The position numbers were made by a program, and so were the translations under genes. The notes below the pieces were generated by a model, which saw nothing but the letters and a program-made list of their open reading frames with translations, had not been told where the DNA came from and searched no databases. Source: a phage. Taken from it: a stretch of DNA of 64,000 nt. Each line of letters opens with the position of its first letter. Within the stretch, counting starts at the first letter, position 1. Shown here one piece after another: positions 3,633 to 20,509 of the stretch. The DNA is taken from the NCBI GenBank assembly GCA_017864995.1, contig GCA_017864995.1_4097.1; one strand, given 5' to 3'.

Positions 3633-3751
<119 letters not shown>

Positions 3752-3756
3752 AAATC

Positions 3757-3856
<100 letters not shown>

Positions 3857-3858
3857 CC

Positions 3859-4019
<161 letters not shown>

Positions 4020-4023
<4 letters not shown>

Positions 4024-4180
4024 CACATGAAGAATGGATGAATGACATTAATTTTAGATATTCGGGTATCGGTAAATGGCTAAAGTATCATTGGGAATTC
4101 ATTTCAGAGCCACATCTGTATGATAAACTTATCAACGATCCAGCATATGAAATGTACTTAATTGAACTACTGGTACGAAC

Positions 4181-4353: not shown

Positions 4354-4807
<454 letters not shown>

Positions 4808-5477: not shown

Positions 5478-6297
<820 letters not shown>

Positions 6298-7574: not shown

Positions 7575-7657
<83 letters not shown>

Positions 7658-7660
7658 TCA

Positions 7661-7733
<73 letters not shown>

Positions 7734-18672: not shown

Positions 18673-19638
18673 GTGAAAAAGCTTGATTTAAATGCAATTT
18701 CTGAAGAAGTACTGGATGAGTGTTTTGCTAGTGAAGAAGTCAACGTATTAGAGGCTCTTGATTCCGTCGAAGAAGAAGAACATGACGGTCACAAGTTTGA
18801 GAAACCAAAAACAGGTATCAGCTTAACTCGCCCTAAAGGGATAACGAATGAAATGCTCATCCAAGCAGTGCGTGATGGTATTGACGTTGAAAAGAACATT
18901 GACCTTTTGGTTCGCTACAACTATCCAATGGTAGTAAGTGTTGCACGTAAGTGTACATGTTTTATCCCATTTGAAGATAAGATTTCTTATGGTGTTGAAG
19001 GTTTAATGCGAGCAATTCATACGTTCGACACTACCAAAAATGTTAAGTTCATTACATATGCAACAACAACTGTGTACATGACAATCTATAACGAAAGTGC
19101 AGATGCTAATTATCTAGTGCATTTCCCACGTTATATGAGTGTTAATAACATTTATGTGAAACGTTGTGTAGAAGAGTATCAAAGGAAACATGGTAAATAC
19201 CCAACTCCTGAGATGGTGTCAAAAGAGACTGGTATTGAGATTCAACACGTTAAGAATTGTCTAACTTACAGTAACACTTATGTAGCATTGAATATGAAAA
19301 TGAGTAATGATTCAGAAAGTACATTATCTGACATTGTTACTTCAGTTGAACCTGATTACAACTTAGGCGTAGAAACTGTCAGTACCCCACTGGTACAAAG
19401 TATTGCAGAAATGATGAGTAACCTATCTGCCAAAGACCGTGAATTGATTGAACGTGTACATGGTATTGGTTCTTATTCTGAACCCGAAACGCTACGAGAA
19501 ATCATTGAGAGTGGTTTTGAAGATGAGAAGGGTAAGGTCATGACTGCTCGTTCTTCATTGCACCGTAAGTACTCTGAAGCAATGGAACGACTGCGTAAGA
19601 TGGTTAAGACAAAAGGTTATGAGTTCGAAGATTTTTAA
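18673..19638 (+). CDS. sigma-70 family RNA polymerase sigma factor (phage-encoded)
   Basis: segment VEGLMRAIHTFDTTKNVKFITYATTTVYMTIY resembles sigma70 region 2 (EGNxGLMKAVxKFDxxRGxKFSTYATWWIRQ); C-terminal ETLREIIE...TARSSLHRKYSEAMERLRK resembles region 4 HTH; GTG start after TAGGAGAAGTAA. Confidence 0.6.
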   Translation: MKKLDLNAISEEVLDECFASEEVNVLEALDSVEEEEHDGHKFEKPKTGISLTRPKGITNEMLIQAVRDGIDVEKNIDLLVRYNYPMVVSVARKCTCFIPFEDKISYGVEGLMRAIHTFDTTKNVKFITYATTTVYMTIYNESADANYLVHFPRYMSVNNIYVKRCVEEYQRKHGKYPTPEMVSKETGIEIQHVKNCLTYSNTYVALNMKMSNDSESTLSDIVTSVEPDYNLGVETVSTPLVQSIAEMMSNLSAKDRELIERVHGIGSYSEPETLREIIESGFEDEKGKVMTARSSLHRKYSEAMERLRKMVKTKGYEFEDF

Positions 19639-19645
19639 GATTAAA

Positions 19646-19672
19646 GGGTTGACTTCGGTCAACCCTTTTTTT
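19646..19672 (+). terminator. rho-independent terminator (GGGTTGAC-TTCG-GTCAACCC family)
   Basis: perfect 8-bp stem, TTCG loop, 7 T. Confidence 0.75.
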
Positions 19673-20299
19673 ATGGGACAAATTTATTAATGGTGATACA
19701 ATGATCTATGTACAATCACAATGACAGTACTGGTACTGACAATCTTCCCCTACTTCACTTGAAAATGTAAAGGATAGATGAGCTTTTCATTGTAGCGAAC
19801 AGCAAAAGAAACCCGTTAGATGTGGGCATAGTTTGAACCCCTCACGGCAATGCGGCTGTATAAAGAACCACGTTAGGATAGCTGGTGGTTCCTCGATAGA
19901 CATATAAGGATAACACCTTACGAATTATCTAAGGGAGAGTTATCGAATTTTGTACAGGAAAGTTGCGTCCAAAATTTGAGTACTCACATTAAGTATTTGA
20001 TTGCATAGATACTTAATGAAGATACACTATGTTTAAAAGTGTAGACCGTCATATGAAACTGAAGTAGAGAGAAACAGGATGACCCGCTTTCGCACTCGTT
20101 ATGAGTAATCTTCAATGCAATAGCTCTGATACCATCAGCGTCAAATTTCCCTCCGTGCGGGGGGAAGAAAAATCCCTTCCTCAAATCCCGTCAATATTAA
20201 AAGTCCTTGACAGTTATGATTCATTCGCGTAGAATACGTAGTATTAGAAGCGAACAGACATCTCGAAGAGATGGATGATTAACCATCGAGGAATATCTA
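19673..20299 (+). ncRNA. large intergenic region, candidate non-coding RNA or regulatory region
   Basis: about 630 bp with no SD-preceded ORF in a genome otherwise more than 90% coding; G/C-rich hairpins such as CCCTCCGTGCGGGGGGAAG; promoter at 20207-20235 near its 3' end. Confidence 0.3.
20207..20235 (+). promoter_or_regulatory. sigma70-like promoter
   Basis: TTGACA - 17 nt - TAGAAT. Confidence 0.5.
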
Positions 20300-20509
20300 A
20301 TGAATTCAGTAATCTTTTTAATTATTGCTCTTTCACCACAATCTGGCGTACAAATCACCCCAATGAATTCAATGAATCAATGCATTGCAGTACGTGACAG
20401 TACGTATGAACAAGTAAACAGCGTTTCACTTAGAACAGTTGGTGAAGAATTAATGTGGTGTTACAATAGTAATACTAAAGAAAAACTAATTGTTGGACAA
20501 ACAGAATGA
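20300..20509 (+). CDS. hypothetical protein
   Basis: ORF track; GAGGAATATCTA-ATG context. Confidence 0.4.
   Translation: MNSVIFLIIALSPQSGVQITPMNSMNQCIAVRDSTYEQVNSVSLRTVGEELMWCYNSNTKEKLIVGQTE

Follow-up and report, generated by a model that had tools for sequence, protein, structure and literature searches.

To our knowledge, few large RNAs of bacteria or phages have complex tertiary folds (rRNA, RNase P, tmRNA, group I and group II introns, OLE, GOLLD, ROOL, raiA and HEARO). Each new large folded RNA has pointed to unexpected biochemistry. The ornate RNAs GOLLD and ROOL, carried by phages and prophages and of unknown function, build cages that consist of RNA only (PMC12286853). In phage PA5oct, RNA-seq has defined strongly transcribed regions of 236-619 nt that are free of open reading frames (ORFs), named ncRNA001-004, with ncRNA002 measuring 451 nt (PMC7318152). 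Here we analysed a 627-bp intergenic island, positions 19673-20299 of a 64,000-nt stretch of phage DNA (GenBank assembly GCA_017864995.1, contig GCA_017864995.1_4097.1), which we call the window. We regard it as probable that a large non-coding RNA (ncRNA), rich in pseudoknots, is encoded here by a self-contained cassette, and that this RNA would be made from the + strand under its own extended -10 promoter and act in trans as a fold. That the island holds a member of a structured RNA gene family is, taken separately, very likely.

The source is an Asteriusvirus (121Q/PBECO4-like, 'Rak2-like') jumbo phage of E. coli. By blastn, the locus and its flanks are 99-100% identical to phages EC.P1, Ecwhy_1 and WPEC3/5, with EC.P1 the closest genome to the window. 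The conserved cassette occupies essentially the whole island and consists of an extended -10 promoter, an RNA core of ~430 nt, a G/C hairpin (20146-20170) and the motif CAAATCCCGTCA (20182-20193). G+C content is 39.1% in the island, as against 35.0% in the window.

Like GOLLD and ROOL, the RNA is large, pseudoknotted, stand-alone and carried by phages without an associated protein gene. Unlike them, it is found in phages of Enterobacteriaceae, is smaller (~430-nt core) and occurs in 3-5 diverged copies per genome; it matches neither in sequence nor in structure, and covariance models of GOLLD, ROOL, OLE and HEARO gave no match. Long-range pairings between a loop and a distant strand, such as PKc described below, could in principle be intermolecular, covariation being blind to pairing in cis or in trans, and this would be a further likeness to GOLLD and ROOL. 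With the PA5oct long ncRNAs it shares the lack of ORFs and the wider phage clade. No similarity was found to ncRNA001 or ncRNA002 (7.5-23.5 kb of PA5oct; nhmmer with filters off, and a covariance model), the two of the four that the comparison covered. The element also resembles phage 'morons' as a self-contained promoter unit, usually with a terminator, set between unrelated genes such as an integrase and a repressor; it differs from them in that its cargo is RNA rather than protein and in being multi-copy in virulent jumbo phages.

Searches of known families were negative. The Rfam scan that the first-pass annotation of this DNA had proposed (introns, 6S-like RNAs, riboswitches) was run with Rfam 15: at gathering thresholds over the whole window it returned six tRNAs elsewhere and nothing on the island, and at E<=10 on 19500-20500 it returned only terminator-like noise at the flank. 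At E<=1, six diverse family members had no Rfam match on the RNA. ARAGORN found no tRNA or tmRNA gene in 19500-20400. No TnpB/IscB or reverse transcriptase gene adjoins the RNA in the window, where its neighbours are a sigma-factor gene and small ORFs that lack Pfam matches; in the bacterial islands described below, integrases, a cI-like repressor and membrane proteins surround it, with no partner gene of an omega-RNA or retron/DRT system. The RNA is undescribed in two jumbo-phage reviews (PMC13282480, PMC7824862), the CBB genome paper (PMC5259590) and full-text literature searches, as far as the searchable libraries reach. Within the libraries searched, it is a new class of large, ornate, stand-alone ncRNA.

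Covariation carries the assignment. In an alignment of the four EC.P1 paralogs, blocks of identity are separated by compensatory changes. Helices were sought among all column pairs of a 56-sequence alignment, as stacked, covarying pairs that were at least 90% canonical. A 116-pair model was tested on an independent MAFFT alignment of 41 sequences mutually <90% identical (median ~55%). Standard pairs were formed in 84.8% of cells, compared with 38-41% when the 3' partners were slid by 1-3 columns. Cells changed on both sides numbered 708 (90-171 in the slid controls) and the covariation score was 0.399 (0.065-0.097 in the controls); none of 500 shuffles reached the three covariation values. At least 13 helices were well supported, being 91-100% paired with several compensatory pairs each (P3, P5, P6, PKb, P7, P8, P10, PKc and P11-P15). 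Four interactions cross others: PKa, PKb, PKc and P12, the last over P13/P14. RNAalifold on the full L-INS-i alignment gave a partial nested structure only. P13, P14 and P15 were also recovered by RNAalifold unaided.

Pair types identify the strand. The well-aligned helices are rich in G.U pairs and contain almost no A.C (for example 32:0, 29:0 and 7:0), and we therefore take the + strand to be the RNA; over all drawn pairs the ratio was 228 G.U to 195 A.C, which does not discriminate between strands. The orientations of promoter and terminator agree with a + strand RNA. A large structured ncRNA had been one of the candidates put forward in the first-pass annotation, and it is strongly supported by the covariation, the RNA's own promoter and the strand-fixing G.U pairs.

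The fold, given here with + strand coordinates, begins with PKa, in which 19718-19723 (ACAAUG) pairs with 19788-19793 (CAUUGU) in the loop of P3. At least four alternative complementary pairs occur here (ACAAUG/CAUUGU, CUGUUG/CAACAG, GUGUGG/CCACAC and CGAUUA/UAAUCG). P3 itself (19782-84 with 19794-96) is 100% paired with two covarying pairs. Upstream of it lies hairpin P2 (19750..19777), 89.8% paired with seven of eight pairs changed on both sides, which presents a conserved 9-nt loop, GAAAAUGUA, at 19761-19769. P5 (19799-803 with 19855-59; 100% paired, three covarying pairs) encloses P6 (19813-16 with 19844-47; 100% paired) and the variable hairpin P4 (19824-26 with 19838-40), whose loop is CAUAGUUUGAA. 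In a second subtype P4 is swapped for a longer insert; since both subtypes recur across genera, the paralogs are old. P5 is crossed by PKb, three base pairs between 19850-52 (AUG) and 19901-03 (CAU) that are 100% paired, with two of three covarying and with the alternatives AUG/CAU, ACA/UGU, AUA/UAU and ACG/CGU. Two hairpins follow, P7 (19865-71 with 19885-91; 92.3% paired, 7/7 pairs covarying) and P8 (19905-09 with 19916-20; 94.7% paired).

On the 3' side of P8 is an invariant single-stranded motif, UAAGGGAG (19930-19937; alignment columns A229-A234). A role for it as a mimic of a Shine-Dalgarno (SD) sequence was considered and rejected: no downstream start codon is conserved and the match to the anti-SD is imperfect. 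The next element is an optional hairpin module, GAAUUUUG-UACAGGAAAGUUGCGUC-CAAAAUU (19937..19985); across copies, a module of the UACAAUAUAGAUCCGUCCAAAAUUU type sits either here or within the P15 loop, or is absent. P10 (19987-98 with 20007-18) is 94.4% paired, with 11 of 12 pairs covarying, many G.U and no A.C. Its loop (20000-06, AUUGCAU) forms the long-range pseudoknot PKc with a strand 110 nt downstream (20115-21, AUGCAAU); the 7 bp are 99.6% paired and all seven covary. PKa and PKc each have their own sequence pair in every one of the four EC.P1 paralogs. Ordinary compensated drift would account for these paralog-specific sequences, and specific self-assembly would also fit them.

The 3' pseudoknotted domain (20022..20114) comprises P11 (20022-26 with 20040-44), P12 (20048-52 with 20079-83), which crosses the next two helices, P13 (20060-64 with 20110-14), P14 (20067-71 with 20087-91) and P15 (20094-97 with 20103-06). 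P11-P15 are 90.6-100% paired with 3-4 covarying pairs each, and the domain contains the invariant strands GACCGU and ACCCGC. Together with GAAAAUGUA, AUAAAG, GAUAGA and UAAGGGAG, these make up the invariant unpaired positions of the RNA, such as would be expected of tertiary contacts or of a binding or active site. Some elements drawn from the window row are weak (P1, 43% paired; a hairpin at 20126-38, 31%; the G/C hairpin, 63%), and P16 was still weak after redrawing from the majority sequence. A hammerhead reading of AGAUGAG...CGAA was discarded, the core positions C3, U4, A6 and G12-A14 not being conserved.

The RNA promoter (19675..19702, + strand) consists of a -35-like GGGACA (19675-80), the TG of an extended -10 (19694-95) and TACAAT (19697-19702). 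Judging from the promoter position, transcription would start near 19709, and the structured core would run from ~19709 to 20145, its 3' limit being set by the motif DR1, CATCAGCGTCAA (20133-20144). G(G/A)GACA-N17-TGnTATAAT stands at the same place in all four EC.P1 paralogs. Among 112 unique copies with enough upstream sequence, 91 carry TGnTAnnnT and 109 have a TAYAMT (TATAAT-like) hexamer at the expected upstream place. The -35 region of the copies is TGAAAC, TGGAAC or GGGACA. A 'divergent RpoD-like' promoter has been noted for phages CBB and GAP32, and its -35 is the TGAAAC/TGGAAC variant of this family (PMC5259590). In one type of paralog, a terminator-like hairpin with a U-run lies between the promoter and the RNA body (e.g. 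GGACAGTA..TACTGTCCTTTTTT); it was seen in L076, L044, L152, L159, L144, L261, L154, L061, L158, L026 and copy B of EC.P1. Such a hairpin might attenuate transcription, stabilise the 5' end or mark a tiny transcript of its own.

Beyond the core, a hairpin with a U-run resembling an intrinsic terminator follows the motif CAUCAGCGUCAA in 67 of 116 scored copies (58%); the window copy is among the 49 (42%) that have none. The G/C-rich hairpins noticed in the first-pass annotation as unusual for an AT-rich genome are represented by a real one, TTTCCCTCC-GTGC-GGGGGGAAG at 20146-20167, which belongs to a conserved G/C hairpin at 20146..20170 (UUUCCCUCC-GUGC-GGGGGGAAG in the RNA). Its form in the rest of the family is UUCAUUCCCC-UGC-GGGGGGAUGAA. 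When redrawn from the majority sequence, its five core pairs are 98-100% paired and alternate between U.G and C.G; because of this alternation we read it as a + strand RNA hairpin and not as a DNA palindrome. In all 116 scored copies it stands 13-17 nt upstream of DR2 (CAAATCCCGTCA, 20182..20193, + strand), which repeats the CGTCA(A/G) of DR1, reads AAAUCYCGUCA across copies and is near-invariant in phage and bacterial-island copies alike. In EC.P1, the G/C hairpin and DR2 are present solely at the four RNA copies.

Most copies, those in bacterial islands included, have a further conserved module of ~90 nt after DR2 (TGAATTGAG...GAACGAAGTG...GAAAATTCTT, then a hairpin with a GAA-type loop; L019 and L185 are examples). 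The window keeps a remnant of this second downstream module at 20248..20273 (+ strand), namely GAAGCGAAC and the hairpin CATCTC-GAA-GAGATG (20259-20273). Possibly the module forms the 3' portion of a longer RNA; it could also be a small element in its own right. Accordingly, the RNA may be ~430 nt or ~500-650 nt long. Between DR2 and the remnant in the window is a sigma-70-like promoter, TTGACA-17-TAGAAT (20207..20235, + strand), which agrees with the consensus at 11 of 12 positions, is not preserved in this form at other copies and probably serves the downstream genes.

The element proved to be multi-copy and to extend outside phages, which was beyond the view of the first-pass annotation. 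With 19700-20200 as the query, blastn found it in 62 GenBank phage records, all of them jumbo phages of ~350 kb, at 3-5 places per record. Their hosts are Escherichia, Salmonella, Klebsiella, Cronobacter, Erwinia, Pectobacterium, Serratia, Yersinia and 'Xanthomonas', and every Rak2-like enterobacterial jumbo phage examined carries 3-5 diverged paralogs. The core (~450 nt) is ~70% identical across several phage genera. Within Asteriusvirus the core is ~96% identical, compared with ~89-90% for the region including flanks, and such an excess in the core reads as a sign of selection. In EC.P1 (356,444 bp) the element occurs four times on the same strand, at 56.8, 169.4, 254.5 and 306.7 kb, with spacings of 52-112 kb. 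Over the stretches aligned by blastn, identity to the window copy is no more than 70-79% for three of the four. Each of the four fills its own gap of 660-840 bp free of coding sequences, and copy D is flanked by opposite-strand genes. A covariance model of the 3' domain recovered exactly these four copies in EC.P1 and one in the window, and no further copy was found within the 64 kb. The family set grew to 146 hits and 132 unique sequences once IMG/VR, metagenomes and GTDB genomes had been scanned with sequence patterns and nhmmer had then been applied; a permissive IMG/VR pattern, GAAACNGNNNNACCCGCTT, returned mostly chance hits.

Members were also found in chromosomal contigs of Citrobacter amalonaticus, Enterobacter chinensis, Silvania hatchlandensis and an Enterobacteriaceae isolate, and in metagenome-assembled genomes of Buttiauxella and Enterobacteriaceae (nhmmer E 1e-88 to 1e-112). 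In Enterobacteriaceae these are single copies within integrase-bearing islands. The usual order is integrase, RNA, a convergent cI-like S24/HTH repressor, a Ner-like protein, a 286-aa membrane protein, a DUF1311-like protein and an invertase, as in the integrative elements L185, L179, L177, L181, L170, L199 and L268. The integrase is a large serine recombinase or of the tyrosine type, and host insertion loci differ (between ppdD and hofB, or beside a CorC/HlyC-type transporter gene). These islands may be prophage remnants or satellites. No part of the cassette is missing from their copies; the promoter-type sequence, the G/C hairpin and DR2 are all present. The RNA was found in two of 5,426 complete E. 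coli genomes, with no PGAP annotation on either copy. In one of them, strain LR-29-1, the island (L273; NZ_AP027515.1, 3470142-3488515) lies beside ffs, and a gap of 1.4 kb that carries no annotation contains the RNA; ~2.6-4.3 kb downstream of it are genes for dual-OB and DUF488 (and DUF4326) proteins that match the PADLOC candidate defence system PDC-M45. The RNA was on no plasmid searched and on no temperate-phage record among the GenBank phages.

The island is not protein-coding. The first-pass annotation described ~630 bp without an SD-preceded ORF, and the coordinates and gene layout that it gave are accurate. It also doubted the one listed ORF, on the minus strand at 19984..20184, and rightly so: this would encode 66 aa from a TTG start, and its frame is not kept among family members. 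The short ORFs of the island (19787-19903, minus, 38 aa; 19984-20184, minus, the 66-aa ORF just mentioned; 20101-20232, plus, 43 aa) have no Pfam match. That small proteins are nevertheless made from it, as several GenBank records annotate, has in our estimate a negligible chance. Some records place 2-5 'hypothetical proteins' over the region, and 73% of members have a minus-strand ORF of at least 40 aa over one given column; against this, the minus-strand ORFs of 41 family members start and stop differently over the same conserved nucleotides and use all three frames, so that no frame is conserved and the peptides are unrelated. Indels among members are not multiples of three, and the variation is compensatory within RNA helices. 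Annotations of 2-5 'hypothetical proteins' over the RNA were seen in WPEC3/5, SHEFM2K, BAU.Micro_ELP-22, SD-*_S*, E9.1 and JP4, and are likely over-predictions; the UE-S1 record labels part of the RNA as a repeat_region.

The island might instead be an RNA-primed replication origin, at which an R-loop of the transcript primes DNA synthesis as at T4 oriF/oriG or with ColE1 RNA II; on this account the one-copy bacterial islands would be replicated by an infecting jumbo phage. We consider this unlikely. The dispersal of 3-5 copies, in EC.P1 all in one orientation and 52-112 kb apart, would suit it, as would the promoter at each copy, the G6 run and C-rich run near the 3' end, the DNA conserved beyond the terminator-like hairpin and the presence of copies in integrative islands of the same host family. 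With ColE1 RNA II and the T4 origins it has in common that a promoter drives a structured transcript, which is G-rich near its end, and with T4 that several copies are present; the RNA differs from them in having far more conserved tertiary structure, in lacking evidence of a skew or an unwinding element, and in occurring in chromosomal islands too. The GC-skew check proposed in the first-pass annotation gave no origin signal: the cumulative skew of EC.P1 tracks gene orientation, without inflection at three of the four copies, and the fourth lies near a switch in gene orientation. No iterons or AT-rich unwinding element were found among the conserved parts. At least 13 covarying helices, four pseudoknots and G.U-specific pairing far exceed what a primer needs, and the U.G/C.G alternation of the G/C hairpin would mean A.C mismatches in DNA. 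The replication origin of the first-pass annotation thus loses ground on both skew and structure, and its packaging site fits poorly with 3-5 dispersed copies per genome and copies in bacterial islands.

A cis-acting leader for downstream genes, riboswitch-like or acting by processive antitermination, is in our view quite unlikely. Transcripts could enter co-oriented downstream genes from the 42% of copies that lack a terminator, while in the other 58% the terminator sits like an expression platform, and the 3' extension is conserved. However, the downstream genes vary, and the next gene is on the opposite strand in copy D, in Salmonella phage Munch and in all bacterial-island copies; at the window copy the next gene has a separate strong promoter, and 430 nt with four pseudoknots exceeds known leaders. 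Very unlikely, finally, is that the element derives from a class of ribozyme already known and has become degenerate or free-standing, for example as a group I-like core or an RNase P-like RNA. By textbook comparison, the order P5(5')-P6/P4-PKb(5')-P5(3')-P7-PKb(3')-P8 mirrors the group I order P3-P4/6-P7-P3'-P8-P7'-P9, and GAUAGA, a joining strand, is similar to 'AGAUAU' of group I J8/7; the resemblance to the intron core lies in the order of crossing helices in the 5' domain and in A-rich joining strands. Yet the element lies outside genes, is driven by a promoter of its own, lacks a splice-site context and does not match RF00028; no Rfam group I, group II, RNase P or other ribozyme model matched at E<=10 on 19500-20500 or at E<=1 in six diverse members. 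The helix corresponding to group I P7, PKb, is 3 bp long and has no conserved G-C (GC:32, AU:9 among 41 sequences). The intergenic position with its own promoter and the lack of a group I/II match even at E<=10 likewise speak against the intron remnant suggested in the first-pass annotation. There is a short resemblance to the ACAGAG..AACCCGC of RNase P RNA.

We return to an RNA that would act in trans as a fold. This is suggested by its own promoter, its usual terminator, its unrelated neighbours, its varied genetic settings and its invariant unpaired nucleotides; independence from neighbours is seen at copy D, in the convergent bacterial-island copies and in the E. coli island, where the neighbours are again others. 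As a mechanism, taken alone, trans action by a folded RNA has in our judgement slightly less than an even chance. The RNA might work as a ribozyme, assemble into a complex of RNA only, or serve some conserved factor of enterobacteria or phages as scaffold or decoy; it would act neither by antisense pairing nor as a DNA site. It would be made early, by host RNA polymerase, and several copies would provide dosage and/or paralog-specific roles; the G/C hairpin and the CGUCA motifs would be the 3' end of the RNA or a region where it is processed. Our confidence in any specific function is low to moderate. A lysogen-like state must tolerate the RNA, and the early phase of lytic infection must benefit from it; for this reason we lean towards a part in conflict, of phage with host or of phage with phage, or in the handling of some conserved RNA or protein of the host. 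General host shut-off seems less likely. A more specific proposal, an undescribed class of ornate RNA in conflict between phage, host and island, working as a new ribozyme or an RNA-only multimer, is doubtful. If it is true, the paralog-specific 6-7-bp PKa and PKc pairings would be address codes by which each paralog assembles with itself or in a fixed order, and the islands would carry their copy to exploit or block infecting jumbo phages.

Several points weigh against a self-contained cassette for a trans-acting RNA. The 5' and 3' ends are predictions from sequence. Forty-two percent of copies, the window's included, have no terminator-like hairpin, and since sequence beyond the place of this hairpin is conserved, a longer transcript or read-through into downstream genes is possible. 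The folding energy of the single sequence is unremarkable on the + strand (z = -1.3); it is -2.5 on the minus strand. This measure says nothing useful about an RNA with pseudoknots, and the choice of strand did not draw on it. The mechanism is a guess at the level of class, and the negatives from the literature and Rfam extend no further than the libraries searched.

Around the island, a sigma-70-family gene (18673-19638; Pfam Sigma70_r2/r3) ends in an intrinsic terminator found by terminator scan (19643..19668, + strand), which is the left boundary and lies outside the RNA; the next SD-preceded gene is at 20300-20509. The hairpin of the sigma-factor terminator, AAAGGGTTGACTTCGGTCAACCCTTTTT, recurs at eight places in the window (19627, 28104, 31698, 32496, 34059, 34741, 39365 and 41433) and is often directly followed by GCTATAAT. 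Its stem contains TTGAC, and it may double as a terminator and the -35 of the next promoter. A strong sigma-70-type promoter, CTTGAC(T/A)AA..TCAGTACTGTATAATG, is repeated with a conserved spacer at 4354, 4775, 5076, 5835, 22035, 26346, 37214 and 39936, and this set is probably an early-promoter family. The six tRNA genes form a cluster on the + strand (3662-3748, 5881-5967, 6125-6200, 6208-6279, 7581-7653 and 7661-7733). A tandem pair of 161-bp copies with 77% identity lies at 3840-4161, and 45900-64000 holds at least 11 tandem paralogous genes of ~1.2 kb on the minus strand, with common N-termini (ATGTTACCTTTTGTTAGA...) and common upstream promoter/terminator sequences.

For the annotation of these phages, the analysis corrects spurious 'hypothetical proteins' in many GenBank records. 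The PA5oct ncRNAs show that related phages make abundant ORF-free transcripts (PMC7318152). The family is tractable: its hosts are E. coli and relatives, its phages 121Q, PBECO4, phAPEC6, CBB and GAP32 are culturable, and it offers more than 130 diverse covarying sequences, four pseudoknots and a natural set of 3-5 paralogs per genome. It is carried by virulent jumbo phages and also by integrative islands, one of them next to a candidate defence system, which suggests that it takes part in infection or in conflict between phage and host.

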